A program made the translations under genes and the position numbers. From positions 3,296,001-3,360,000 of the forward strand of contig OZ250165.1 of assembly GCA_965238005.1 (NCBI GenBank): DNA of 64,000 nucleotides. Reading direction: 5' to 3'. Below, in pieces: positions 32,172 to 51,091 of the stretch. The notes under the pieces were generated by a model that ran no database searches, was not told the DNA's origin, and saw only the letters and a list, made by a program, of their open reading frames with translations. Within the stretch, counting starts at the first letter, position 1; every line of letters begins with the position of its first letter. This DNA is from Longimicrobiales bacterium. Lineage in GTDB: Bacteria; Gemmatimonadota; Gemmatimonadetes; Longimicrobiales; Gaopeijiaceae.

Positions 32172-33228
32172 CGTCGCCCTCCTCCTGTGCGTCGGCTCCA
32201 CCCGAAAGCTCGAGCAAGCGCGCGTCGTAGTGGGCCTGGGCCGTCTTGCGGCTGTCTCGGGCCTCGAGGGCCTTCACGTCGTCGGCCGAGTCGAACTGGG
32301 CCAGGAAGTCGGACATGTCGCCGACCTTTGGCAGCTTCACGGACGCTACGTCGATACCGCCCTCGATGGGAGCCTCGACCTCCGCCTTCTGCGCGGCCGT
32401 GGGCTTCGCGGCGGGCTTCCCGGCCGTAGGTTTCTCGGCCGTAGGCTTCGCGGCCGTGTCGGCCTTCACCTTGGGGGCCGCCCTCTTGGTCGTCTTCTTG
32501 TGGCCCCTGCGAGCCTTCCTGCGCTCGGCCCGGGCCTCGGCGGCCTCCCGCTCGCGGCTCCGGACTTCCGGCTCACCACGGTCCCGGGCCGCTGCCGCGT
32601 CGCGGTGCGCCTCGGACGGCTCGGCCCCGTCCAGGGCAGCTTTCTCGATGACGACCACGTTGGCCCACAGAATGTCGTAGACCGACTCCTGGCCGAAGGG
32701 ACGGATCTCGACGTTCGGCAGGTTGCGGGCCGAAAGGTAGACGTTCTCGCTTGGCCCGTCCGTCAGGACGAGGACCTTCCCGTCCGCACCGATGGCCGAG
32801 AAGAGCGCGAGGAGCTGCTTGGTCTTGGGGGCATCGAACTCGAGGGCGTCCACGAGGACCACCCGCTCACCCTGTGCTCGCTGGTTGAACGCGGACCGGC
32901 GAGCGAGGGCCCGGACCTTCTTGGGAACCCGTTCCCTCCACGAGTGGGGAATCGGCGGGAAAGCGACACCGCCACCTGCCCACTGCGCGGCCCGAATCGT
33001 TCCCTGACGGGCGCGTCCGGTCCCCTTCTGTCTCCAGGGCTTGTGGGAGCCGCCGGCGACCTGACCACGGGACTTGGCCGCCGCCGTCCCCTGTCGCTGA
33101 TTCGACAGATAGGCCTTGATCACCTGGTGGAGGACGTCCTCGTTGACGACCCCGTCGAAGAGCCACTCGGGGAGATTCTGTTCCCCGCCTTGGGCTCCAT
33201 CACTCTGGTAGTAGCGTGCTTTAAGCAT
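32164..33228 (-). CDS. rplD: 50S ribosomal protein uL4 with ~150-aa C-terminal extension
   Basis: [14 protein letters not shown] core; 354 aa in total. Confidence 0.95.
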
Positions 33229-33231
33229 GCG

Positions 33232-33849
33232 TCACTTCTGGATCAACAGATAGCTGTTCCTGGACCCGGGCACCCCACCCTTGATGAAGAGGAGGTGGCG
33301 CTCGGCGTCCACTCTCACGACCTGCAGGTTACCGATGGTGGTTCTCTTCCCGCCCATGCGGCCCGGCAGCTTCTTGCCCTTGATGACTCGAGACGGATCG
33401 GTCCCGGGTCCCAGGGAGCCCGGAGTCCTCGCCGCCGAGTGGCCGTGGGAAGCCGGGAGCCCTGCGAAGCCCCAACGCTTCACCACGCCCTGGAATCCAC
33501 GCCCCTTGGAGGTGCCCGTCACCTTGACCTTGTCACCCGCCTCGAAGACCTCGACGGTGACCGACTGCCCGAGCTCGAACTCGTCGCCTTCGGCCACCGG
33601 GAACTCACGCACGAGTCGGGGCGCCGCTTCGACGCCGGCCTTGGCGGCATGGCCCTTCTCGGCCATGCTGGCGCGCTTGTCCTTCTTGGACCCGAAGCCC
33701 AACTGAACAGCAGAGTACCCGTCCCTCTCCTCGCTCTTGATCTGGAGCACCGGGCAAGGGCCCGCCTCCACGACCGTCACGGAGAGCGCGGCTCCATCCT
33801 CGTCGAAGATCCGGGTCATCCCGATCTTCTTTCCAATCAATCCGGGCAT
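33232..33849 (-). CDS. rplC: 50S ribosomal protein uL3
   Basis: [18 protein letters not shown]. Confidence 0.97.
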
Positions 33850-34157
33850 CAGTCGACCCTAATCTCGACGTCCACGCCAGCAGGAAGATCGAGCTTCGTC
33901 AGCGCGTCGACCGTCTGCGGACGGCTCTCGACGATGTCGATGAGCCGCTTGTGCGTCCGAAGCTCGAACTGCTCGCGGCTCTTCTTGTCGATGTGGGGCG
34001 AGCGCAGCACCGTCCAGCGCTCACGCCGCGTGGGCAGCGGGATCGGTCCGCGCACGGTCGCGCCGGTCTTCTGCGCCGTCCGCACGATGTCGGCCGCGGT
34101 CTGGTCCACGAGCCAGTGGTCGAAGGCCTTGAGCCTGATTCGAATCCTGTCTGCCAT
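33849..34157 (-). CDS. rpsJ: 30S ribosomal protein uS10
   Basis: [23 protein letters not shown]. Confidence 0.98.
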
Positions 34158-38567: not shown

Positions 38568-38939
38568 CTACTTGGGTCTCTTGGCGCCGTACTTCGACCG
38601 ACCCTGGCGCCGATCACCGACACCGGAGGCATCCAGGGTCCCCCGGACGACGTGGTACCGCACTCCGGGCAAGTCCTTTACCCGTCCACCTCGAATGAGC
38701 ACGATCGAGTGCTCCTGGAGGTTGTGTCCTTCCCCACCGATATATGACGTCACCTCGTACCCGTTGGTCAGCCGCACCCTTGCCACCTTTCGAAGAGCCG
38801 AATTGGGCTTCTTGGGGGTGGTGGTATACACCCGGGTGCAGACCCCTCGCTTCTGAGGGTTCTTCTGCAACGCAGGGGACTTGTTCTTCTTCTGATGCTC
38901 GCGCCGTCCCTTGCGAACGAGTTGGTTGATCGTAGGCAT
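38568..38939 (-). CDS. rpsL: 30S ribosomal protein uS12
   Basis: [29 protein letters not shown]. Confidence 0.99.
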
Positions 38940-39090: not shown

Positions 39091-39310
39091 CGGGGTGTTC
39101 CGCCCCGAAAACCGGCTTCGGCCGGGGCATTTTTTGGGGGGGGGGGGGGGGGTGAGGTGCCCCGCCATCGCTCGAAGCGATCCCATGAGCCTCCGGCGCA
39201 GTGTCAGGCCCCGGAGATGTCCTTCCGCCGGTGAGGTCCGGCCCAGGAGGACTCCATTGTCTGAATGGTTATCAGGGGAGTGGGGATCGCGCATCAAGCA
39301 TTCGGCCTTC

Positions 39311-40483
39311 CTACTCCCTATTCTCTACTCCCTTTCTTCCGCCGCCTATAGCTACCGGAGTTCCCCACCCCCCCACTGGACGCAAGGATCGCTGTCGGAC
39401 CAGCGTCGGCACCTGTGTGATGAAGTGCGCCGTTCGCAAGACACACTCCCACAGTTGAAACGGCAATCTGGGCAGTTCATTGAACGGCCCTCCGACGCCT
39501 ACCGTAGCCTGTATCGGATTGGGCCAACGGAGACGAATTGCTTTTAGCAGATGGGCGGGGTGCCGGAAGGAGTACGCCATCGACGGAGTATCCATATAAT
39601 GCTCCTCGATCGACCACTGGCGGAGCACTGAGGGAAGGAGCCATCGGGGCAGGTGTCTGGCCCTCTCCGCCGTCGGAATGCCGTCCAGGCGGGCCCCGAG
39701 AAGCTGGTGGGCCAGACACACGGTGGATGCCACCCAATCCGCGCGCCGCCGGTCTCCCCGCAGTAGATACTCCCAATCAAAATCCTCGGGCAGAGATTCC
39801 AGCACGACGGCGATGTCGCACAGCCACAGAGGGCGGAAGGCCCCATGGCCCAACATGTGTATGCACATGTAGCGGAGATGATCTTCGGGTCCCAATATCC
39901 GCACGTCGACGTCGCCCAGCAGTACCTGCTGGGAACGCTCGTAGACATCATCCAGCGAAGGGCGGTGGAGCTGGGGCAGACCCTTGTGCAAATCGACTAC
40001 GCCCGTCTCGGCCGCCGGAGTGGCAAGTGCAGCCGCCGCGACCGAATGCTGTTCCGGCCGAACACACAGGTCGATGTCCCCATAAGGTCGCAGCCCACGT
40101 TCGGGGTAAAGTCGAGCGATTGCCCAGCCCTTGACCAGCAGAGGGTCCACACCGGCTGACTGAAGGAGCGTAATGGCCTGAACGACTTGGCGCTCGTGGC
40201 GGGCAGCCTGGAGAGTGTAAAGGCGGTACGCCTGCCGAAGTTCGTGAGCGGCGGCGGAGATGCGGAACTCGGACGACCGCACCCGCCACCACCCCAAACT
40301 CGCTGCTCCGGTCCCGAGAAGGAGCGGCGTGACCTCGGCCAGCGCGCTAGGAGAGAGAGACAAGGGTGGTGGGTTATTGCGCCACGAGCCAGCGAGCACC
40401 GATGCTACCAGCTTGCCGCGTGGCCTCAGCTTCTGGTCAGGGTGTAGACGCGGAATGCCGCGATCCCACTGCACGTATTCCAC
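39311..40483 (-). CDS. nucleotidyltransferase family protein (NTP_transf_5-like), copy 2
   Basis: LLVKGWAIARLYP..GLRPYGDIDLCV, VDLH, LWLCDIA. Confidence 0.85.
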   Translation of the reverse strand: MEYVQWDRGIPRLHPDQKLRPRGKLVASVLAGSWRNNPPPLSLSPSALAEVTPLLLGTGAASLGWWRVRSSEFRISAAAHELRQAYRLYTLQAARHERQVVQAITLLQSAGVDPLLVKGWAIARLYPERGLRPYGDIDLCVRPEQHSVAAAALATPAAETGVVDLHKGLPQLHRPSLDDVYERSQQVLLGDVDVRILGPEDHLRYMCIHMLGHGAFRPLWLCDIAVVLESLPEDFDWEYLLRGDRRRADWVASTVCLAHQLLGARLDGIPTAERARHLPRWLLPSVLRQWSIEEHYMDTPSMAYSFRHPAHLLKAIRLRWPNPIQATVGVGGPFNELPRLPFQLWECVLRTAHFITQVPTLVRQRSLRPVGGWGTPVAIGGGRKGVENRE

Positions 40484-40492
40484 CGCGTAGAT

Positions 40493-41029
40493 TCATAGAC
40501 AGTCGTCGTCAACACACTCAGTAGCATCTGCTACACAGCATACACCAGGATCACCGCATATTGGCGAGTTGCCGCAAAAAGGAGGAAAACGGGTTTCGCA
40601 TTGTCCCGCACTAATACACCCAGATGCTTGTGCCGCCGCCACCGGCGCGACGATCGATGCGATCACCGGTAGGAGGATCGAGATCCCTGCAACCGGTCGC
40701 AGGGTTCGTAGCACTTCCCGCCGCGAGTATTGGGCCCTATCTGCCGGCAGTGTCAGCGGCTCACTCGGCAAGCGTGCCCTGCCCAAGCGGTCCAGCGCCA
40801 TCCACACCACCGCTTCGTCGGCCGGAATTTCCAGTTCCTTTTTCAGCAGCGCGGCTACATCGGCCACGCTCGTTCGTCCATCGCAGTGCTGCCAGACCAG
40901 GGCGGCCGTGCGATTCAGGCAACGGGCCTTGTCACGCTTCAGGTCGTATACCAGGGTTTCGTCCTGTAGCTCTTCGACGGCCGGCTCGCCATGCCTCGCA
41001 CGGGGCATCAGCGCGCTTGTCGTTTCCAT
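40493..41029 (-). CDS. PqqD/RRE-domain protein fused to a Tat-like signal and an 8-Cys peptide, copy 2
   Basis: ETLVYD..CLNRTAALVWQHCDGRTSV (RRE), SRREVLR + hydrophobic stretch + AAAQ, 44-aa Cys-rich tail. Confidence 0.85.
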   Translation of the reverse strand: METTSALMPRARHGEPAVEELQDETLVYDLKRDKARCLNRTAALVWQHCDGRTSVADVAALLKKELEIPADEAVVWMALDRLGRARLPSEPLTLPADRAQYSRREVLRTLRPVAGISILLPVIASIVAPVAAAQASGCISAGQCETRFPPFCGNSPICGDPGVCCVADATECVDDDCL

Positions 41030-41118
41030 CGGTATCTCATTCCGAATCGATGGCGCGTGCTGACACTACCACGATTCCCGCGATGCGCACAAGCCACAAC
41101 TCGTCCCGAGCTACCCGT

Positions 41119-41925
41119 TCACGAGCCTCGGCCCGCCTGTTCCGTCAACCGGCCTAGGAGGACTTCGGCGACTTCGGCGGCCTCACCGCGCGCGCCCTTC
41201 ATCACCGTCGCCTCGGCCACGGTCGAGCTCAGCGTCGCGAAAACCCGCTCCGGATCACGTCTGGCGGGGACGGTGTGGTTCAAGAGCTCCAGCACCGCCC
41301 GCCCAGGCGAAAGCGGGCGCGGTCGCCAGCGTACACCGGGCCGGTAGCTGGTCTCAACCACCAAACCTACCGGGAGCGGCCTGACACCGGTTTTCCCGCC
41401 CAAAGCTTCCGGGCGGATCTTCTTCGGGCGCCCACCTCCGTTCTGCCGCATCGACAAAGCCTTGGGATACGGATGCACCCGACCATGCTTGTCAAGAACG
41501 GCGTATTCATCTGAGTAGTACGTCGCCCCCGCTTCGACCAAGGCCTTGATCAGAGTGGACTTGCCGGTCATCGTGCGCCCCGGGACGACGATGGCCCTGC
41601 CACGCCAGCCCACGACGCCGGCGTGGACAAAAACCCTGCGGCGGGCATGATCCGCGATGTGTATCTGCATGTGCCCTTCGAGGGCATCCAGTGCCTCGTC
41701 CGTGTCCTTCGTTCGTGCCAACCCTCGCGCGCCCACATACAGAACGTTGAAACGGCGACGGTTGGAGCCGACCTTGGTGCCGCTGGCTATCAGCGAATAC
41801 AAAAAATCCACGCGGGGGCCGCGAGCCGGCTTCACATCCGGCGGAAGCACTCCTTCAATCCGATCCAGGATCTCCGGGCTGCTCACCCGGATCCCAATAC
41901 GTACTCCGTGGGAGACGAACGCCAT
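41119..41925 (-). CDS. HPr-kinase-related P-loop kinase, copy 2
   Basis: VHAGVVGWRGRAIVVPGRTMTGKSTL...YYSDE. Confidence 0.82.
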   Translation of the reverse strand: MAFVSHGVRIGIRVSSPEILDRIEGVLPPDVKPARGPRVDFLYSLIASGTKVGSNRRRFNVLYVGARGLARTKDTDEALDALEGHMQIHIADHARRRVFVHAGVVGWRGRAIVVPGRTMTGKSTLIKALVEAGATYYSDEYAVLDKHGRVHPYPKALSMRQNGGGRPKKIRPEALGGKTGVRPLPVGLVVETSYRPGVRWRPRPLSPGRAVLELLNHTVPARRDPERVFATLSSTVAEATVMKGARGEAAEVAEVLLGRLTEQAGRGS

Positions 41926-42465
41926 CCCTGCCGCCCACCCAAGGCGGTCGATTTTCTTTTGTCAGGTAGATCGCCACACCAAGACCATATCGTCAGCGTC
42001 GCGCAAGTACGGTCGAGATCCATTGTGCTGTTTCATCGGCAATTCGTCGCTCAAGGGGTTGTCTGAGAAGGAGTCGTGCGGTCAGGGTGCATGCACAAAG
42101 ATAGGCCCACGAGCCAAAACCAGGGAGATTTAGTTACGCAACGTCACCTTCAAAGGCGACGCTCCGAGGCAAAGCCGCGTTTACGCGGCGAGGCCGTGGA
42201 GCGAGCGTCGATCCACCGCGCCCCCAATCACCTTCCCGCCAACGCCCTCCCGCCACAACGATTGAGTTGCAGACCGTCACAGCACGCATGATCCGAGGCG
42301 CGGCCGCGGACCTCCCCGCACCCAAGTATCCTCCCGCCAATGCCCAACAACCGGCATGCCAAAAAGCCGCGCGGGACGGAGGATTTCGGGGGGTCGAACG
42401 ATGAGCAGGCGAGCGCGGATTGCGCAACGAGCATTCGGCCTTCCTGCTCGTTGACGCCCTACTCC

Positions 42466-43608
42466 CTATTTTTTTCGGTTTCTGGCAGCCGGAGGTCCCC
42501 ACCCCCCCATAGGGCGGAGGGATCTCTCGCGGACCCGCGTCGGCACGTGCCTGATGAAGTACGCCGTCCGCAAGACGCATTCCAACAGTTGAAACGGCAA
42601 CCTGGGCAGTTCATTAAACGGCCCTCCCACGCGTACCGTGGCCTGTATCGGATTGGGCCAACGGAGGCGAAGCGCTTTGAACAACCGGGTGCGGTGCTTG
42701 AGGAACGACCCCATCAACGCATCATCCATGTAGTGCTCCTCCATCGACCACTGGGTGAGCACTGCCGGAACAAGCCACCGAGGCAAACGCCTGGTCCTCT
42801 CGCCCGTCGGAATGCCGTCCAAACGGGCCCCCAGGAGCTGGTGGGCCAGACACAGTGTGGACGCTACCCAATCTGCGGGCCGCGGATCTCCCCGAAACAA
42901 GTACTCCCAATCGAAATCCTCGGGCAGAGTTTCTAGTACAACGGCGACGTCGCACAGCCACAGAGCGCGGTGCAGGCCGTGCTGGAGCATGTGTACGCAC
43001 ATGTAACGCAGATGATCTTCAGGCCCCAAGATCCGCACGTCGACGTCACCGAGCGGTACAAGCTGGGATCGCCGGTAGACATCGTCCAACGAAGGGCGGT
43101 GGAGCTGCGGCAGGCCGGCATGCAGATCGACCGCGACCTTTCCGGTGGTCGGAGCAGCGAGTGCAGCCGCCGCTTGCGCATACTGTTCCGGCCGAACGCA
43201 TATGTCGATATCTCCAGAGGGCCGCAGCCCACGTTCGGAGTACAGACGAGCGACTGCCCAGCCCTTGACCAACAGCGGCTCCACCCCCGCTGACCGAAGT
43301 AACGTGATGGCCCGGACAATCAACCGCTCCTGGCGACCAGCCGCGAGAGTGTAATGGCGGTATGCCTGCCGAAGTTCATGTGCGACGGTCGAGGCGCGTA
43401 GCTCCGACGACCGCACCCGCCACCACGCGAGGCCCCCAGCGCCCCAGCCGAGCAGTAGGGGTGCGACCTCGGTGAGGGCGGCGGACGTCAGAGACGAAGG
43501 CCAAGGTGGTGAGGGCGTGCGCCAAGCGCCGACGAGGGCCGCGGCCACCAACTTACCGCGTCGCCTCGGATCGCTGGCGGCGCCCGGATCCGGAAACGAC
43601 GACGTCAC
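42466..43608 (-). CDS. nucleotidyltransferase family protein (NTP_transf_5-like), copy 1
   Basis: LLVKGWAVARLY..GLRPSGDIDICV; GTG start at 43608 follows GGAGA (ORF track extends to 43632). Confidence 0.85.
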   Translation of the reverse strand: MTSSFPDPGAASDPRRRGKLVAAALVGAWRTPSPPWPSSLTSAALTEVAPLLLGWGAGGLAWWRVRSSELRASTVAHELRQAYRHYTLAAGRQERLIVRAITLLRSAGVEPLLVKGWAVARLYSERGLRPSGDIDICVRPEQYAQAAAALAAPTTGKVAVDLHAGLPQLHRPSLDDVYRRSQLVPLGDVDVRILGPEDHLRYMCVHMLQHGLHRALWLCDVAVVLETLPEDFDWEYLFRGDPRPADWVASTLCLAHQLLGARLDGIPTGERTRRLPRWLVPAVLTQWSMEEHYMDDALMGSFLKHRTRLFKALRLRWPNPIQATVRVGGPFNELPRLPFQLLECVLRTAYFIRHVPTRVRERSLRPMGGWGPPAARNRKK

Positions 43609-43612
43609 CGCC

Positions 43613-44764
43613 CTATCTCCGCTTCCTTCCACGCTTCAGGATCACCTGGTCCATCCGGGCTCCCAGACTGTTGAACAGCACGGTTCGATCCGAGGAGCTC
43701 ATGGTGGCTGGAACCGCCTGCTCGAGGACCGTGAGCGTCTGCGGGCTGCTCTTGAATGCACGCCAGAAGCGATGGGCGGCGAAAACCAGCTCGGGAACGC
43801 CGAACGGTGGCGATTTCAGGTTGGCTTTTCTAGAGATCTCGAGGGGTTCGTCGCCCCGAGCCAATAGGCGGAGGACGGGGGAAAGATCGGTCAGAATCCG
43901 ATGGGCTCCTTGTAACGAGGGCGGCTCAGGCGACAGCGCGCATGTGTGTCTCAGAATACGCTCCGCCAACGCCAGCGCAGCGAGCATTGCTTCCGAGCTC
44001 AAGCTGAGCAGGCCAAGCCGGAAGGGTGATGCCAGCGCCAGCAACAAATCGTCTGTCGCGTCGCGGGCGACGGGGCGGGACGGTAGATCCAGGCCGAGAA
44101 GCCGAGTCCCACGATCTACGCGGGAACCCAGCGCGGCACGATCGGCCGACGCATCGTTCAGCACGTCGCCGAAGCGGGCATGGTCCAGGGCCTGGGAACA
44201 CACATCCCGGAAGGTCGATTCCCTCGCCACAACGGCTCGCGGACCGAGATCGGGGTGTAAACGGGTAGGTGTCAGAAACGACTTCACGTATCCCGGATCC
44301 AGCATTCGGCTGTCACGGATGGCGGCCTCGAGGTCGGCGTGGGTACCCTCAACGGCCCCGGGCGATGCCGGGACCTGCAAACGCAGGGGACACAGGAAGT
44401 GCGGGCTGACGGCAACCGCGGCCCCGATCCGGGTGAACACGTTGAACGGAAAAGTCACACAAACCCCCGGCTTGGTGCCCTTTCCGTGCTCCTTTTCAAT
44501 ACGGCACTGGAGGTCGGCGTCGAGGAAAAAGCACCCCCCGGAGGGCGTGGCGATATTGACCTGATCGGCTTGACGGCTAGTGGACACGCTGCCGAGGGCT
44601 GGATAGATCTGTAGCAGCTTACGCATCTCACGCTCGAGGCTGCCGCCGAAGCCATCCCCGCGGCAGCACAGTGCCGTGCACTCCGCACAGACGTAGTGAT
44701 AAACGCCGTCCGGAAACGCGAAGAAGAACGAGCCGTCCTGACTATCCGTGGTTGGTGCGGGCAC
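43613..44764 (-). CDS. YkgJ/CxxCxxCC-type cysteine-cluster (putative Fe-S/Zn) protein with long C-terminal domain
   Basis: CAECTALCC...CFFLDADLQCRIE...KPGVCVTFPF; GGAGGAG RBS. Confidence 0.8.
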   Translation of the reverse strand: MPAPTTDSQDGSFFFAFPDGVYHYVCAECTALCCRGDGFGGSLEREMRKLLQIYPALGSVSTSRQADQVNIATPSGGCFFLDADLQCRIEKEHGKGTKPGVCVTFPFNVFTRIGAAVAVSPHFLCPLRLQVPASPGAVEGTHADLEAAIRDSRMLDPGYVKSFLTPTRLHPDLGPRAVVARESTFRDVCSQALDHARFGDVLNDASADRAALGSRVDRGTRLLGLDLPSRPVARDATDDLLLALASPFRLGLLSLSSEAMLAALALAERILRHTCALSPEPPSLQGAHRILTDLSPVLRLLARGDEPLEISRKANLKSPPFGVPELVFAAHRFWRAFKSSPQTLTVLEQAVPATMSSSDRTVLFNSLGARMDQVILKRGRKRR

Positions 44765-44904
44765 GCCCTGCTCCTCCGCTCATTTCATGTGGCGCCGATC
44801 GTTGATGGTGACCGCCAGGGTGGGGGGAAGCGCGCCGGAGTGGGCCTAACGTACAGTCTTACCGCGGTTGGCTGGACATGCCCATTCGCGAAATGTCGTG
44901 ATCT

Positions 44905-45453
44905 TCAGCAACCACATTTCTCCTGGGCCTGGGAGTTACCCATGCACTTTCCATTACAACACATTCTCTTGTCGCAAGTGGTTCCGGTGTTGTTGATGCA
45001 TGGGGTGCAAACCGGCATCCCTCCACAAGCATTTTGGGGCAGGCACGAGGTTTGTGCCGCCGCCAACGGCGCGACGATCGAATCGATCACCGGCAGGAGC
45101 AGCGAGATCCCGGCTGCCCGTCGCAGAGTTCGTAGCATCTCCCGACGCGAGTATCGGGCCCGATCCGCCGGCAGTGCCACCGGCTCACTCAGCAAGTGTG
45201 CCCGGTCCAAGCGGTCCAGCGCCATCCACACCACTGCCTCGTCGGCCGGGAGCTCCAGTTCCTTTTTCAGCAGCGCGGCCGTATCGGCCACGCTCGTTCG
45301 CCCATTGCAGCACCGCCACACGAGGGCGGCCGTGTGATTCAGGCAAGAGGCCTTGTGGCGCTCCAGGTCGTAGATCAGGATTTCGTCCTGCAAGTCCTCG
45401 ACAACCAGCTCGTCTTGCCTCGCCCGGGGCATCAGCGCTCTTGTGGTTTCCAT
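44905..45453 (-). CDS. PqqD/RRE-domain protein fused to a Tat-like signal and a 10-Cys peptide, copy 1
   Basis: Start METTR after GGAGTGAGGT; EILIYD..CLNHTAALVWRCCNG; SRREMLR; AAAQ; 48-aa Cys-rich tail. Confidence 0.87.
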   Translation of the reverse strand: METTRALMPRARQDELVVEDLQDEILIYDLERHKASCLNHTAALVWRCCNGRTSVADTAALLKKELELPADEAVVWMALDRLDRAHLLSEPVALPADRARYSRREMLRTLRRAAGISLLLPVIDSIVAPLAAAQTSCLPQNACGGMPVCTPCINNTGTTCDKRMCCNGKCMGNSQAQEKCGC

Positions 45454-45550
45454 AGGTACCTCACTCCAAAATCGCTGGCGCGTGCTTACACTACCATTAT
45501 TCACGATTCATATGTGGCGCACAAGCCAAAACTCGTCCCGAGCTACCGCT

Positions 45551-46393
45551 TCACGAACCTCGGCCCGCCTGTTTCGTTAACCGGCCCAAGAGGACTTCGG
45601 CGATTCCCCCGGCCTCACCACGCGCTCCCTTTAGCACCATCGCCTCGGCCGTGGCCGCACGCAGCGTCGCGAAGACCCGCTCCGGATCGCGTCTGGCGGG
45701 GACGGTGTGGGCCAAGAGTTCCATCACCGCCCGCCCAGGCGAAAGCCGGCGCGGTCGCCACCGCACACCCTCCCGGTAGCTTGTCGCGACGACCAATCCT
45801 ACCGGGAGCGGTCTGACACCGGTTGTCCCGCCCAAAGCTTCCGGGAGGATCTTCTTCGGGCGTCCACCCCCGTTCTGCCGCATCGACAAAGGCTTCGGAT
45901 AGGGATGCACCCGACCACGCTCATCGAGCACGGCGTATTCATCCGAGTAGTACGTCGCCCCCGCCTCGACCAATGCCTTGATCAGGGTCGTCTTGCCGCT
46001 CATGCTACGCCCCGGGATGACGATCGCCCTGCCACGCCAGCCCACGACGCCGGCATGGACAAACACCCTGCGGCGGGCATGTTCGGCGACGTATAGATGC
46101 AAGTGGTTTTCGAGGTCTTCCAGTACCTGGTCCGTGTCCTTCGTTCGTACCAGCCTTACCGCGCCCGCATACAGAATATTGAAACGGCGAACGTTGGAGC
46201 CGACCTTGGTTCCGCTGGCTATCAGCGAATACAAACCACCGACGCGGGGCCCGCGAGCCGGCTTGGCATGCGGTGGAAGCACTCCTTCAATCCGATCCAT
46301 GATCTCCGGACTACTCACCCGGATCCCGATGCGTAAGCCGTAGGAGACGAACGCGATCCCCGCCGCCCACCCGAGGCGGTCGATTTTCTCCAT
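45551..46393 (-). CDS. HPr-kinase-related P-loop kinase, copy 1
   Basis: VHAGVVGWRGRAIVIPGRSMSGKTTL...YYSDE. Confidence 0.85.
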   Translation of the reverse strand: MEKIDRLGWAAGIAFVSYGLRIGIRVSSPEIMDRIEGVLPPHAKPARGPRVGGLYSLIASGTKVGSNVRRFNILYAGAVRLVRTKDTDQVLEDLENHLHLYVAEHARRRVFVHAGVVGWRGRAIVIPGRSMSGKTTLIKALVEAGATYYSDEYAVLDERGRVHPYPKPLSMRQNGGGRPKKILPEALGGTTGVRPLPVGLVVATSYREGVRWRPRRLSPGRAVMELLAHTVPARRDPERVFATLRAATAEAMVLKGARGEAGGIAEVLLGRLTKQAGRGS

Positions 46394-46643
46394 TCAGGTG
46401 GACCCCGGCACCAACACCATCTCGTCGACGTCGCACATCTGCGGTGGAGATCCTCTGTGCTGTTTCATGGGGCAATTACACCACCGCGATTGACGAGCCG
46501 ATCGCAGCGCCATTAGAAGGCCGGCGCGACACTGTAAGTCAATGCATCATAACAAGTTCAGTCAGAAGGAACCAGTCGCCCCAGCACCCTGAAAGCCCGT
46601 TCGTACAGCACGTCCTAACCACACTGGACGCCCGATCACACCG

Positions 46644-46683
46644 CAAAAATATGAGGGGGAGTGCCCATCGGGCACTCCCCCTC
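46644..46683 (-). terminator. intrinsic terminator after rpoC
   Basis: 14-bp stem gagggggagtgccc-atc-gggcactccccctc followed by ATATTTTTG on the minus strand. Confidence 0.8.
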
Positions 46684-46702
46684 GCTCACTCAACCGGCTT
46701 GC

Positions 46703-46795: not shown

Positions 46796-49700
46796 CTAGT
46801 CGGCCGTGACCTCTTCGAGCCCGATCAGCTCGCCCGGATCCACCAACGGAAGAATCTCCTCCTCGTAGAACGATTGCTCGACCATGAACTCCACGTCCTG
46901 ATACCGATGGACACCGGTTCCGGCTGGGATGAGGTGACCGATGATGATGTTCTCCTTGAGCCCCTTCAGGTCGTCCCTGGCGCCCCGGACTGCGGCGTCC
47001 GTAAGCACGCGGGTCGTCTCCTGGAAAGAGGCGGCCGAGATGAAGGACTCGGTCGTGAGGCTCGCCTTGGTGATCCCCAGCAGGAGCGGCTCGGAGCGAG
47101 CCGGCTTCTTGCCGTCTTTGATCGATCTGCGGTTCACCTCGCGGAATTCGACCCGGTCGACGTTCTCCCCTTCCAGCAGCGCCGTCTCACCGGGATCGGT
47201 GATGCGGACCTTCTGGAGCATCTGCCGGACGATCACACCGATGTGCTTGTCGTTGATTTGCACGCCCTGCAGTCGGTACACCTCCTGGATCCCGTTGAGC
47301 AGGTACTCCTGCACGGCCCGGGGGCCACGGATCTTCAGGATGTCGTGCGGGTTGATGGGACCCTCGGACAGACGGTCACCCGCCCGCACCCGGTCACCCT
47401 CGTGCACCCGCATGTGCTTGCCGACGGGCACCGGGTAAGCCCTCTCGTCCTTCTCCCCGGTGTCCGGCGTCACGATCACTTCGCGCTTGCCTCGTTTGAT
47501 GTCGCCGAAACGTACCTCGCCGTCGATCTCCGTGATGACCGCCGGGTCCTTCGGGCGACGCGCCTCGAAGAGCTCAGCAACGCGCGGCAGACCCCCCGTG
47601 ATATCTCGGGTCTTATACACCTCGCGGCTGATCTTGGCGATGGTGTCGCCGGGGTTGATCTTCTCACCGTCCCGGACCGTGAGCTGGGCGCCCATCGGGA
47701 TGATGAACTCCCGGAGCTTCTCGGCCTTCTTCGTGCCCTTCCGAATCTGGATAGTCGGGTGCAGCTTCTTGTCGCGATCCTCGATGATCGTCATCTGGCG
47801 ACGACCCGTGGACTCGTCCAGCTCCTCCCTCATGGTCTGCTCGTCGACGATGTCGACGAACTTCACGACCCCGCCGGAGTCGGCCACGATGGGCTCGGAA
47901 TACGGGTCCCAGCTGAAGAGCAGGTCGCCGGACTCGATCACCTGCCCCTCTTCAGCCGCGAGCGTCGCGCCGTACGGAACGCTCAGGCGACTACGGACCT
48001 GGCCCTCCGCCGTCTTGAGCAGGATCTGCCCCTCGCGTGAGGTCACGATCAGCTCGTCGTTGGGCGTAAGAACCGTGGTGACGCGCTCCAGAGCCGCCAC
48101 TCCGTCGATCTTCGAGCGACGCTGGGTCTGAGCCGCGATCCGGGCCGCTGTTCCTCCGATATGGAACGTCCGCAGCGTGAGCTGCGTCCCGGGCTCGCCG
48201 ATCGACTGGGCCGCCAGAATCCCGACGGCCTCACCGATGTCGACCAGCTGCATGGTGGCCAGGTTCCGGCCATAGCACATGTGGCAGAGGCCCCTCTTGG
48301 ACTCACACGTCAGCACGGACCGGATCTTCACGACCTGAATCCCTGCAGCTTCGATGGCGTCCGCGGTCTCCTCTTCGATGAGATGGCCGGCCTGGACCAG
48401 CAACTCTCCGTCGATGGGATCGTAGACGTCCTCGAGGGCCACGTTGCCCACGATTCGGTCCATGAGAGGCTCGATGATGTCCTCACCCTCCTTGAGGGCA
48501 GTCATCTCGAGGCCGAGGATGGTCCCGCAGTCTTCCCCGGTGATGGTCACGTCCTGGGCGACGTCGACGAGGCGGCGCGTGAGGTACCCTGCGTCCGCCG
48601 TCTTCAACGCCGTGTCGGCGAGACCCTTCCGCGCTCCGTGGGTAGAGATGAAGTACTCCACCACCGACAGCCCCTCGCGGAAGTTGGACTTGATGGGGCT
48701 CTCGATGATCTCGCCGATGCCACCCGTGAGCTTCTTTTGGGGCTTGGCCATGAGGCCACGCATCCCGGCGAGCTGCCGCATCTGGTCGCGGTTACCTCGC
48801 GCCCCGGAGGTCATCATCATGTAGACGGGGTTGAAGCCCTCCTGAGAACGCTCCAGCCGCTTGACCATGGCGTCGGCTACGTCGTTGTTGGCGTGGGTCC
48901 AGGTGTCGATGACCTTGTTGTACCGCTCACCGTTGGAGATGTAGCCGCTGGAGTACGCCTTCTGAAAGCGCTTGACCTGCTCGCCGGCTTCGTCCAGGAT
49001 CTGCGGCTTCTCATCCGGCACATCGAGGTCGGCGATACCCACGCTGATCCCACCCATGGTGGCGTACCGGAAGCCGAAGTCCTTCAGATAGTCCAAGAAC
49101 TCGGTCGTACGGGTCAGCCCCACGGTGGTGAAACAGTCGAAGACGAGGTCTCCCAGCTCCTTCTTGCCGAACGTCTGGTTGAAGAAGCCCAGCTCCGCCG
49201 GGATGATGGAGTTGAACAGCACGCGTCCCGCCGTGCACCTGAGCCACTTGCCGTCGTGGTCTCCGTCCTCCTCGGGATGCTTCGGCACCCAGTACCAGCA
49301 CGGGCTGTTGAACTGGAGCCAACCGCCCTCCAGCCCCATCTCCACCTCTCCGAACGTGGAGAAGTGGGGAACGTCGGCGTAGATCTCGTCAAGGCCCTCT
49401 TCGGCAGCGGCCCGAGCGTTCTTGGGCGCCTTGCTGTTGTACGCCACCTCCTCCAGGTCCGAGATCTCCAGGGCCGGCTTGGTGAGGTAGTACCCACCGA
49501 TGACCATGTCCTGGGACGGCGCCGTGACCGGTCGGCCGTGGGATGGCAGCAGGATGTTGTTGCTCGATAGCATGAGCACCCGTGCCTCGAGCTGCGCCTC
49601 GAACGACAGAGGTACGTGAACCGCCATCTGGTCCCCGTCGAAGTCGGCGTTGAACGCCGCGCACACGAGCGGGTGGATCCGGATGGCCTTCCCCTCCACG

Positions 49701-51091
49701 AGCACGGGCTCGAACGCCTGGATGCCCAGACGGTGGAGCGTCGGGGCTCGGTTCAGCAGCACCGGGTGGTCTTTGATGATGTCCTCGAGGACTTCATAGA
49801 CCTTCGGATCGTCACGCTCGACGATCTTCTTGGCTCTCTTGACCGTCTCGGCCTCGCCCCGCTTCTCGAGCTCGTGGATGATGAACGGCTTGAACAGCTC
49901 CACGGCCATGGCCTTGGGCAGGCCGCACTGGTGCAGTTTGAGCTCGGGACCGACCACGATGACCGAGCGACCAGAGTAGTCCACCCGCTTCCCGAGCAGG
50001 TTCTGGCGGAAGCGTCCCTGCTTGCCCTTTAGCATGTCGGACAGTGACTTGAGGGGACGCTTGCCCCGACCGCGAATGGCCTTCGAACGCCGCCCGTTGT
50101 CGAAGAGCGCGTCGACGGCCTCCTGAAGCATGCGCTTCTCATTCCGGAGGATGACCTCCGGGGCGCGCATGTCGATGAGCTTCTTGAGCCGGTTATTCCG
50201 GTTGATGACCCGACGGTACAGGTCGTTCAGGTCGGAGGTGGCGAACCGTCCCCCGTCCAGCGGAACCAGAGGCCGAAGGTCGGGCGGAATCACCGGAATC
50301 ACATCCATGACCATCCACTCGGGCCGGTTCCGTTCGCCCACGCTGCCGCCCGAGTTGCGCAAGGCGTCGACCACCTTGAGCCGCTTCAGCTTCTTCTTCT
50401 TACGGTGCTGTGACGTCTCCGTGGCGATCTCGATCCGCAGCCAATGTGCCAGGCGATCGAGGCCTTTGCCGTCGGAGTTGCGGTCGTTGATCCGGCGCAC
50501 CGGGCTGTCGAGCATCTTGAGAAGCGTGCGAACCGCCTCGGCACCGATCTCGGCCTTGAACCTCTCGTCGCCCTTGTCTCGCGACTTCACCCGCAGATCG
50601 TAGTACTCGTCCTCGTCCAGGAGCTCGAGGAACTCGACATCCTGCTTGCCGGGGTGCGTCACCACGTACGAGGCGTAGTAGATCACCTTCTCCAGATCCC
50701 GCAGCGTCATCCCGACCAGGTACCCCAGCTGGCTAGGTAGCGTCTTGAAGAACCAGATGTGACAGATGGGCACTGCCAACTCGATGTGGCCCATGCGCTC
50801 GCGGCGAACCTTGGAGAGCGTGACCTCGACCCCGCAGCGATCACAGACGTGCCCCCGGAACCGGATCCGCTTGAACTTCCCGCAGTGACACTCCCAGTCC
50901 TTCACCGGACCGAAGATGCGCTCACAGAACAGTCCGTCCCGCTCCGGCTTGAAGGACCGGTAGTTGATGGTCTCGGGCTTAGTCACCTCACCGAACGACC
51001 AGGAGCGGATCTCCTCGGGAGCGGCGATTCTGATCTGGATGAAGTCGAAGTCCGAGGAGCGCTGCTCTCTCGACCTGGGAAAATCGATCAT
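46796..51091 (-). CDS. rpoC: RNA polymerase beta' subunit
   Basis: NADFDGD catalytic motif, N-terminal Zn finger. Confidence 0.99.

Follow-up and report, generated by a model that had tools for sequence, protein, structure and literature searches.

A PqqD-type recognition domain and a twin-arginine signal-like segment precede hypervariable cysteine-rich tails in tandem cassettes of a Longimicrobiales bacterium

Seven genes, all on the minus strand, lie between rpsL (38568-38939) and rpoC (46796-51091) in a 64,000-nt window of contig OZ250165.1 from a Longimicrobiales bacterium. All positions given here refer to this window. The seven genes form two tandem cassettes, each with a gene for an HprK-like protein, a gene for a precursor-like protein with a cysteine-rich tail, and a gene of the NTP_transf_5 family. 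One additional gene, X383, is found in copy 1 only. The precursor-like proteins, termed Pre2 (copy 2) and Pre1 (copy 1), are the subject of this analysis. Each carries a domain of the PqqD type, the fold of the recognition elements (RREs) that serve peptides made by the ribosome and modified after translation (RiPPs), in front of a segment that resembles an export signal and a tail that differs almost completely between the two copies.

Pre2 (40493-41029) is an open reading frame (ORF) of 178 amino acids. The PqqD/RRE winged-helix domain spans approximately residues 16-88 (40766-40984). It is followed at residues 101-134 (40628-40729) by an internal twin-arginine, hydrophobic and alanine-rich segment, YSRREVLRTLRP...SIVAPVAAAQ. 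The last 44 codons of the gene and its stop codon (40493-40627) encode an A-S junction and a hypervariable tail with eight cysteines. The first 134 residues are called the front part below, and the tail behind ...AAAQ is called the core. Pre1 (44905-45453) is a paralogous precursor whose core (44905-45051; the last 48 codons plus the stop) has ten cysteines. Its ORF reaches upstream to a GTG codon at 45504, and its relatives begin at an MET(T) sequence equivalent to the ATG at 45453, which from this comparison is the likely start.

The two precursors are identical at 116 of 178 positions (65%) overall. Their front parts share 78% of residues and 85.3% of DNA positions over 402 nt, and behind ...AAAQ there are scattered matches only, with no alignment. 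This pattern had been described in an original prediction made from the letters of the window, which gave the sequences of both tails, their 8 and 10 cysteines, the point at which the paralogs diverge, and the opening C-x5-C and CC doublet that both cores share. Re-reading and realignment reproduce all of these details exactly.

The original prediction also named the conserved portion a leader. Its conservation is evident, but the front part is more than a leader, since it comprises a PqqD/RRE domain as well as the internal twin-arginine signal-like segment. The Pfam PqqD model (PF05402) scores 36.0 bits for Pre2 and 31.4 bits for Pre1 against a cut-off of 23.4 bits, and the cut-off is exceeded in 86 of the 89 relatives that were scanned. 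An AlphaFold2 (AF2) model of Pre2 built from 123 sequences has a mean predicted local distance difference test score (pLDDT) of 73.9. It places strands in residues 16-39, helices in residues 40-84, a long helix of lower confidence at residues 103-127, and a compact unit at the C terminus. The winged-helix RRE fold, a three-stranded sheet followed by helices, is present in this model. Its best Foldseek matches in the PDB are PqqD (5sxy) and the lasso peptide B1 proteins TbiB1 (5v1u and 5v1v) and 6jx3. These have probabilities of 0.99-1.0 and TMt values of 0.57-0.72, with E-values of only 0.013-0.04 and none at or below 0.001. The B1 proteins, TbiB1 and 6jx3, were solved bound to their leader peptides.

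Relatives of Pre2 reveal which features of the tail are maintained. A word-indexed search with the whole protein yields 699 proteins at E<=1e-3. Among the best 120 of these 699, the tail has eight cysteines in 118, and the remaining two have seven and, in a truncated tail, six. An alignment of 123 sequences has an average entropy of 0.52 bits in the PqqD part and 0.45 bits in the signal-like part, compared to 2.20 bits at the non-cysteine positions of the core, and 122 of the 123 tails are distinct. Conservation across homologs collected in this way is split within the core itself: the loops are hypervariable, as expected for the rapidly diversifying payload that the original prediction proposed, but the eight cysteine columns are 98-100% conserved. 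Likewise, the two cores are unrelated to each other, as claimed, but neither is unique. Core 2 belongs to the 8-Cys family just described, and the 10-Cys framework of core 1 recurs in three tandem genes of another genome (G224) and in further genomes. The tails also differ in charge. Of the 123 tails, 77% are cationic (median +3), and the most acidic is core 2, with a net charge of -6. In G224, the 10-Cys tails are rich in lysine. Relatives of core 2 mostly have cysteine as their last residue. At one locus (L055:5400-5579), the second of two precursors of the 10-Cys type ends in a longer tail with 8 cysteines that lacks the final C-G-C, and it may be a frameshifted or decaying copy.

The family is far larger than the 8- and 10-Cys groups. 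An exhaustive search with the 134-residue front part finds 5104 clusters (at 50% identity) at E<=1e-3; the number drops to 2629 at E<=1e-10 and to 21 at E<=1e-30. In the best 150 clusters, the tails have 6 cysteines in 39 cases, 8 in 39, 10 in 21 and 12-20 in 14. The others have no cysteine (19), 2 or 4 (9), or an odd number (9). Even counts of at least four thus characterize 116 of 150 tails, which bears out on a family-wide scale the even cysteine counts first remarked on in the two cores, and this dominance fits the formation of disulfides. Tails without cysteine are Lys/Gly-rich, Ser/Thr/Pro-rich or very short.

Many of the 6-Cys tails follow the spacing C-x6-C-x5/6-CC-x3/4-C-x4-6-C, and the tail of one such relative (P0215) matches the Pfam Conotoxin model at 25.7 bits (cut-off 25.1). 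The last six cysteines of core 2 are arranged as C-x5-C-x5-CC-x6-C-x4-C, preceded by two more in a C-x5-C pair. By spacing only, these six are compatible with the C-C-CC-C-C framework of knottins. When core 2 is modeled alone by AF2 (45 residues, with the same alignment rows), the mean pLDDT is 85.8, and a helix at residues 8-13 and strands at 22-24, 27-35 and 38-43 are predicted. This model supports a compact fold for the core, and its predicted three-stranded sheet is compatible with a knottin-like structure.

The cores are further distinguished by their base composition. Core 2 is 50.8% GC and core 1 is 53.5% GC, compared to 64.4% and 63.4% for the two front parts, 67% for the last 100 nt of each front part and 64.8% for the genome. 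These measurements agree with the earlier hand count, which had set low-GC cores against about 66% in the leader. A GC content of 50% or less is found in only 0.76% of the 135-nt windows in the genome, and one of 53% or less in 1.8%. Expected values for each core were derived from its own residues and the synonymous codon usage of the genome, and the cores were compared to 17,560 44-codon windows taken from 1,471 long ORFs. Core 2 has G or C at the third position (GC3) in 14 of 44 codons, where 35.1 are expected (z -8.0). Only 0.04% of genome windows are that low, and the GC content expected from its residues is 66.6%. Core 1 deviates less, with 30 of 48 codons ending in G or C compared to 39.3 expected (z -3.6; 2.7% tail) and an expected GC content of 60.5%. 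Every gene in the cassettes is somewhat low by this measure (z -1.2 to -7.1), whereas the adjoining rpoC scores +4.7. Across the AAAQ boundary, where the original prediction located the change, GC3 falls from 0.71-0.79 in the front parts to 0.50-0.68 in the cores of the closest relatives. The 6-Cys cores of three other genomes (G232, G281 and G060) have no drop in GC3 relative to the front part. The best explanation for the low GC3 of the cores is not their amino acid content but turnover or replacement at a faster rate than in the surrounding sequence.

Substitution patterns and block replacement point in the same direction. Pairwise ratios of nonsynonymous to synonymous differences (pN/pS) are 0.31 (8-Cys group, 78 pairs) and 0.38 (10-Cys group, 45 pairs) for the front parts and 0.58 and 0.65, respectively, for the cores. 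An 844-letter contig of run X2 matches the window at 40127-40336 and 40626-40969 with approximately 80-86% identity, and between these matches 290 unlike letters replace the 289 of 40337-40625. The replaced stretch comprises core 2 and the first ~49 codons of the adjacent NTP_transf_5 gene, and the alignment picks up again two bases from the leader/core junction. This contig, which bridges the replacement and alone is used here (dips in depth at the cores were set aside), is direct evidence that core 2 has been replaced as a block in a related organism. Together with the entropy contrast and the distinctness of the tails, it supports the proposal that the cores are a rapidly diversifying payload. 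Searches of the whole genome by blastn-short and tblastn find the cores themselves and no further copy of either, which argues against a template-driven mechanism. A diversity-generating retroelement or silent cassette was accordingly rejected on the lack of a template copy in the genome, a reverse-transcriptase gene not having been searched for.

The cassette as a whole may also move. It occupies the same rpoC-rpsL site, within the rpoB-rpoC / rpsL-rpsG-fusA row, in G224 (locus L032), and rpsL lies within 5 kb of the precursor at loci L045, L047-L050, L055-L057 and L088. In seven of the eight genomes with rpsL in the locus, synonymous distances to the window are lower for the cassette than for the adjacent rpsL (0.16-0.50 for the cassette compared to 0.57-0.62 for rpsL). 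The exception is the eighth (L056), with a nearly identical rpsL (0.05) and a cassette distance of 0.16-0.31. These values suggest that the cassette is exchanged between lineages at a fixed housekeeping site. Separately, 41172 is joined to 45612 in contigs from runs X1 and X5, with the loss of 4439 bases that a single cassette would entail, and other contigs go back 4392-4432 bases (42015/46406), a signature of the tandem arrangement. Either cassette copy-number variation between strains or assembly effects on the repeat could produce such contigs.

Each precursor gene is flanked by genes for two enzyme-like proteins. HprK2 (41119-41925, 268 amino acids) and its paralog HprK1 (45551-46393, 280 amino acids) are HprK-related, P-loop kinase-like proteins. 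TIGR04352 is the best NCBIfam match of both, with 55.6 and 53.9 bits, respectively, compared to a cut-off of 200; they are therefore relatives of this family and not members. The P-loop Gly-Lys (G121, K122) and a Ser-Asp pair (S138, D139) of HprK2 are invariant in 42 relatives. Compared to HprK1 and to the consensus of the family (MxKxDRLGWAAG...), HprK2 as called begins approximately 12 residues late (41889-41925). Its actual start may lie upstream or be non-canonical, or the N terminus of this copy may be truncated. NTase2 (39311-40483, 390 amino acids) and its paralog NTase1 (42466-43632, 388 amino acids) match PF14907 (NTP_transf_5) at 102.8 and 100.2 bits (cut-off 31.2), and the translation of NTase2 contains a G-D-I-D-L motif.

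X383 (43613-44764) is a cysteine-cluster protein of the YkgJ type (CxxCxxCC). It has no Pfam or NCBIfam match, and a feature-based protein atlas places it at 0.97-0.94 to clusters carrying PF03692 (YkgJ), with FliB-like flagellin lysine methylases in lower rows. Sequence searches of solved structures return no match for X383 or NTase2. Occurrence of the X383 gene behind the precursor is limited to copy 1, to G224 and to 6 of the 79 other loci, where it lies within 5 kb. It may encode a further tailoring enzyme. A terminator-like hairpin (46653-46683, minus strand) with a 14-bp stem, 11 G-C pairs and a following T-run separates rpoC from the cassette; it is a match to the consensus only. No Rfam family reaches its gathering score between 38000 and 47000. 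The single site from a promoter scan is sigma-70-like and on the wrong strand, a yield that does not exceed that of shuffled sequences. Among the RNA runs consulted, none is listed as covering 39300-46700.

The architecture is very common in uncultured soil bacteria. The 79 other loci come from named genomes of Gemmatimonadota, Acidobacteriota, Methylomirabilota, Chloroflexota, Actinomycetes (one representative), a Devosia and others. An HprK-like gene is present within 5 kb of the precursor in 42 of these loci, an NTP_transf_5 gene in 46, and rpsL in 9, and clustering of all neighbors reveals no other widely shared family. In particular, no lasso cyclase, B2 protease, radical S-adenosylmethionine (SAM) enzyme, lanthionine synthetase, cyclodehydratase or transporter is encoded by the seven genes between rpsL and rpoC or conserved in the 79 loci. 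Other arrangements are found in Pyrinomonadaceae and related loci (L075, L080, L082, L087, L089 and L099). These have arrays of 2-4 precursors with different tails, interspersed with genes for a PrmA-like SAM methyltransferase and for an uncharacterized 462-residue protein encoded on the opposite strand. A Dam-type methylase and an amidohydrolase are encoded alongside, and no kinase-like or NTase-like gene occurs within 5 kb. Such variation of tailoring genes around a constant precursor scaffold is typical of peptide clusters. Two loci have additional genes. An AbiEii-type toxin gene and a neighbor lie between the precursor and NTP_transf_5 genes at L033:10775-12475 (genome G142), and a gene for a MauE-family membrane protein is located directly 3' of the precursor at L037:10378-11301 (G283). 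The MauE-like genes of the genome studied here lie elsewhere only.

A structural model connects the kinase-like enzyme to the precursor. Complexes predicted from HprK2 (42 alignment rows) and Pre2 (123 rows) score 0.80, 0.80 and 0.79 in three runs, and the best of three controls scores 0.17. Of 157 solved complexes, 116 reach the same mark, as do 2 of 215 mismatched pairs; with custom alignments, as used here, these figures are approximate. At least 91% of contacts are common to the three runs, and the pLDDT of the partner is at least 78. On HprK2, the interface comprises residues 206-233 and 61-92 together with 101, 117, 140 and 158, of which 117 is in the P-loop stretch and 140 and 158 are near it. 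On Pre2, it comprises residues 16-39 (one face of the PqqD sheet), 124-137 (the end of the signal-like segment and the junction) and 147-154. The model supports a putative docking of HprK2 on the PqqD domain of Pre2. Because residues 124-137 are at the interface, the signal-like segment may also be a strand that is gripped by the enzyme.

The segment itself is closely similar in both copies, with the consensus YSRRE(V/M)LRTLR(P/R)..AGIS(I/L)LLPVI(A/D)SIVAP(V/L)AAAQ. Its twin-arginine motif (SRREVLR in Pre2, SRREMLR in Pre1) begins at residue 102 of 178, and S102, R103 and R104 are invariant in the 123 relatives of Pre2. The arginine pair is retained in all 142 distant representatives whose match reaches the junction. 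The residue before it is serine or threonine in 128, and 88 have the complete motif [ST]RRx[FLIVM][LIVMFA][KR]. The best 19-residue Kyte-Doolittle mean is 2.34 in Pre2 and 1.87 in Pre1, and is at least 1.6 in 89% of 150 representatives. At the junction, 137 representatives have proline at -6 (95%), alanine at -3 (66%) and -1 (76%), then A, Q or G, then serine or threonine at +2 (87%). In its residues, this layout resembles a signal peptide of the twin-arginine type, complete with an Ala-x-Ala cleavage site, and could be served by the twin-arginine translocation (Tat) pathway, by the general secretory (Sec) pathway, or by no export route. The genome encodes TatC, which shows only that the Tat pathway exists. 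It also encodes two DsbA-domain proteins, both of approximately 525 amino acids (G000:C1:4151094-4152668 and 32384-33970; L122:481-2055 and L123:1465-3051). In these proteins, the DsbA-type domain is C-terminal, behind approximately 340 residues without a Pfam match, and they may constitute an unusual disulfide-forming system.

The reading that we favor, and to which we give somewhat better than an even chance, is that these genes encode secreted, disulfide-rich and possibly tailored peptides whose precursors carry their own recognition domain and export signal. Each precursor would consist of an N-terminal PqqD-type RRE, a short linker, an internal signal-like segment and a hypervariable tail. 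The signal-like part would comprise an S-R-R-x-hydrophobic-hydrophobic-R/K motif, approximately 20 hydrophobic residues with a conserved proline, and Ala-x-Ala. The tail, with its fixed cysteine framework, would begin after the conserved [A/Q/G]-[S/T] junction. In the cytoplasm, the PqqD domain would dock the neighboring HprK-like P-loop enzyme. This enzyme and the NTP_transf_5 protein, both of them optional, may tailor the precursor by analogy with the kinase/nucleotidyltransferase pair of certain lasso peptides. The signal-like segment would then take the tail across the membrane via Tat or Sec, and a cut of the signal-peptidase type after Ala-x-Ala would free a peptide of approximately 43-48 residues, which could be oxidized to four or five disulfides. 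Most simply, the freed peptide would act outside the cell in bacterial competition or signaling. Such a role would account for the diversification of the loops behind a constant front part.

A bolder version of this proposal is tentative, and we doubt that all of it will hold. It regards these proteins as a separate class of ribosomal natural products, and a very large one, in which the precursor is its own chaperone and export vehicle. The HprK-like kinase and the nucleotidyltransferase would grip the signal segment, so that modification gates secretion. The knottin-like products would evolve in the manner of venoms, with cores swapped between strains at a fixed junction.

A number of results weigh against the favored reading, and they are considered here with the alternatives to which they lend support. 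The first group concerns export. The signal-like segment is internal, behind a PqqD domain of approximately 100 residues, which is an abnormal place for a cleaved signal peptide. None of 91 proteins (the two in the window and 89 relatives) passes the Pfam TAT_signal model (PF10518, cut-off 22.7 bits). Four have sub-threshold matches of 12-18.7 bits and the two window proteins have none, nor do the latter match a Tat model of NCBIfam. The segment is therefore called 'signal-like' and not a canonical Tat signal. Moreover, the hydrophobic stretch of Pre2 equals an ordinary membrane anchor in hydrophobicity, and therefore it may never be cut.

These observations favor the main rival, an uncleaved bitopic membrane protein with a cytoplasmic PqqD domain, an N-in/C-out anchor and an outer cysteine-rich module for sensing or binding that would regulate or tether the enzymes. 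The hydrophobicity of Pre1 and of most representatives is likewise that of membrane helices, AF2 draws residues 103-127 as one helix, and the kinase is predicted to dock on what would be the cytoplasmic domain. However, the Ala-x-Ala, the proline at -6 and the frequent glutamine or alanine behind them are kept in very distant members, and an uncut anchor needs none of these. Tails can also be very short, lysine-rich or of low complexity, which is odd for a sensor, and the tandem arrays of 2-4 precursors with different tails resemble product diversity. We consider this arrangement unlikely overall.

A second group of results concerns the enzymes. In addition to the shortfall at TIGR04352, the HprK-like profile finds no solved structure by sequence (best E 0.066, to an unrelated binder). 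The HprK-like gene is missing within 5 kb in 37 of the 79 loci, and the NTP_transf_5 gene in 33. The conserved serine or threonine at +2 was considered as a kinase target, a candidacy that is weakened by its being equally frequent with (40 of 45) and without (54 of 62) a kinase gene within 5 kb. Its frequency, being independent of the kinase gene, therefore provides no evidence for phosphorylation. Finally, the position of Pre2 residues 124-137 against the kinase in the model is as consistent with a recognition sequence in the cytoplasm as with a signal.

This last point is the basis of a second alternative, in which Pre2 is a cytoplasmic RiPP precursor. The hydrophobic segment would be a recognition sequence only, the cysteines would be chemically modified or cross-linked, and export would take another route. 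Residues 124-137 (SIVAP...AAAQAS) lie against the kinase beside the PqqD sheet in the manner of the leaders in 5v1u and 6jx3, and the tailoring neighbors differ between lineages, as this scheme would allow. However, the radical SAM enzymes, lanthionine synthetases, cyclodehydratases, proteases and transporters that might carry it out are neither among the seven genes nor conserved in the 79 loci. An arginine pair with serine or threonine before it and arginine or lysine after it, together with Ala-x-Ala, suits an export signal, whereas a binding strand needs less. The even cysteine counts point to disulfides. Together, these considerations make the scheme distinctly improbable.

The third group concerns the core. 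Neither DsbB nor VKOR was found by Pfam in the genome, which is 95.85% complete; this result does not prove them absent. Foldseek matches of the core 2 model to the PDB include nothing at E<=0.001 (best E 3.5), with rows for a double-knot toxin at E 10. A wide VIA-align search returns one row, the epidermal growth factor-like domain of Pfs25 at Z 2.2, and nothing significant. The feature-based atlas has no usable match for Pre2 residues 135-178. These failed searches do not show that the fold of core 2 is new.

Evidence for accelerated change at synonymous sites of the core is also inconsistent. Raw pS of the core exceeds that of the front part in each of 12 comparisons with the window, but the loop alignments are unreliable. 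At invariant two-fold codons of eight close sequences, the synonymous difference is 0.415 over the 8 columns of core cysteines and 0.205 over 15 front-part columns. The excess is not seen when the set is widened to 13 sequences, which give 0.436 for the core and 0.487 for the front part (the latter from 2 columns only). The excess thus rests on few codons. Hypermutation of the core was rejected on these grounds, the approximately two-fold excess in 8 sequences being gone in 13. Given this inconsistency and the unsafe loop alignments, only a faster turnover or replacement is claimed.

Cofactor-containing proteins are commonly exported in folded form by Tat, and the cores could in principle belong to small metal-binding or redox proteins that are loaded in the cytoplasm and exported in this way. 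The twin-arginine motif, the TatC gene and the abundance of cysteine agree with this idea, and the original prediction had mentioned metal binding beside knottin-like payloads. However, the family has tails with 6 or 10 cysteines besides those with 8, there is no conserved pattern of histidine or other ligands, and the inter-cysteine loops are hypervariable, unlike those of metal sites. No ferredoxin or metallothionein matches at E<=1 (Pfam and NCBIfam for both window proteins, Pfam for the 89 relatives), and the sole ferredoxin row in the fold search of core 2 has an E-value of 7.6 and a probability of 0.01. We give this explanation little credence. Least probable of all, to the point of being nearly negligible, is that the GC dip is an uninformative by-product of the Cys, Asn, Lys and Thr codons of the tails: this accounts for part of the dip in core 1, but it is not upheld for core 2, whose own residues predict a GC content far above that observed, and the cores of the closest relatives are low in GC3 as well.

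If the favored reading of a secreted peptide with a built-in recognition domain is correct, it bears on how leader recognition, tailoring and secretion are coupled. Soil bacteria of several phyla, including the rarely cultured Gemmatimonadota and Acidobacteriota, would hold thousands of encoded disulfide-stabilized mini-proteins. Because these sit behind one recognizable front part, they could be mined by that part alone, as with the 2629 clusters at E<=1e-10. Stable peptide scaffolds, and possibly antimicrobials, would thereby become available from a new source. The sharp junction, with conservation before it, variability behind it and block replacement, makes the proposal directly testable, and might permit the front part to serve as a carrier for foreign cores.

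Several known systems share components with these cassettes. In lasso systems, a kinase phosphorylates a serine of the precursor and a nucleotidyltransferase adds hexoses to the phosphate (PMC8498205). The gene sets for phosphorylated or phosphoglycosylated lasso peptides such as paeninodin and pseudomycoidin include a B1 protein of the PqqD/RRE type, an HPr-kinase homolog (K) and a nucleotidyltransferase (N), and the same three kinds of protein occur here. The likeness of the nucleotidyltransferases is one of protein kind, PF14907 being the assignment made here. Unlike lasso sets, the seven genes include no cyclase, B2 protease or ATP-binding cassette (ABC) exporter, and the RRE is fused to the substrate itself, along with an export-type signal and a disulfide framework. 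A lasso peptide cluster was therefore rejected for want of a cyclase and a B2 protease. The kinase analogy is further strained by the C-terminal residues: lasso substrates end in serine, whereas core 2 ends in leucine and core 1 in cysteine. The system described by TIGR04352 is the nearest NCBIfam neighbor of the kinases, far below its cut-off, and Pre1 and Pre2 match none of its partner models.

Tat signals share with the segment the S/T-R-R-x-hydrophobic-hydrophobic-K/R motif, the hydrophobic stretch and Ala-x-Ala. Internal or signal-anchor forms are known, for example in Rieske proteins. The segment studied here differs from Tat signals in its location behind a folded domain of approximately 100 residues, in falling short of the Pfam model and in a hydrophobicity that is high for Tat.

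Animal knottins and superfamilies of the conotoxin type have a conserved signal or pro-region, an invariant cysteine framework and hypervariable loops. The combination of framework and variable loops is shared, and the last six cysteines of core 2 and many 6-Cys tails fit the C-C-CC-C-C order. The proteins described here differ in being bacterial and in having a cytoplasmic recognition domain in front, and no knottin is matched at a meaningful fold score.

Long-leader RiPP precursors, such as the prochlorosins and others with leaders of the Nif11 or nitrile-hydratase type, have a conserved, domain-sized front, many paralogs and divergent cysteine-rich cores. Pre1 and Pre2 resemble them in their domain-sized front part, their occurrence as paralogs and their cysteine-rich cores that are unlike between copies. 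They differ in the PqqD/RRE fold of the front part, in having Ala-x-Ala after a twin-arginine segment rather than Gly-Gly, and in the absence of a lanthionine synthetase, and no NCBIfam leader family of the Nif11 or nitrile-hydratase type matches either protein at E<=0.01. A full-text literature search, with most subscription journals outside its coverage, returned no PqqD domain fused to a signal and a cysteine-rich tail, and no such trio of genes outside lasso clusters. If the favored reading holds, we know of no earlier case in which the recognition element of a peptide-modification system resides on the substrate and is joined to an export signal. We rate the finding as an extension of known kinds of system, namely RRE-dependent peptide tailoring and long-leader precursors with hypervariable cores.

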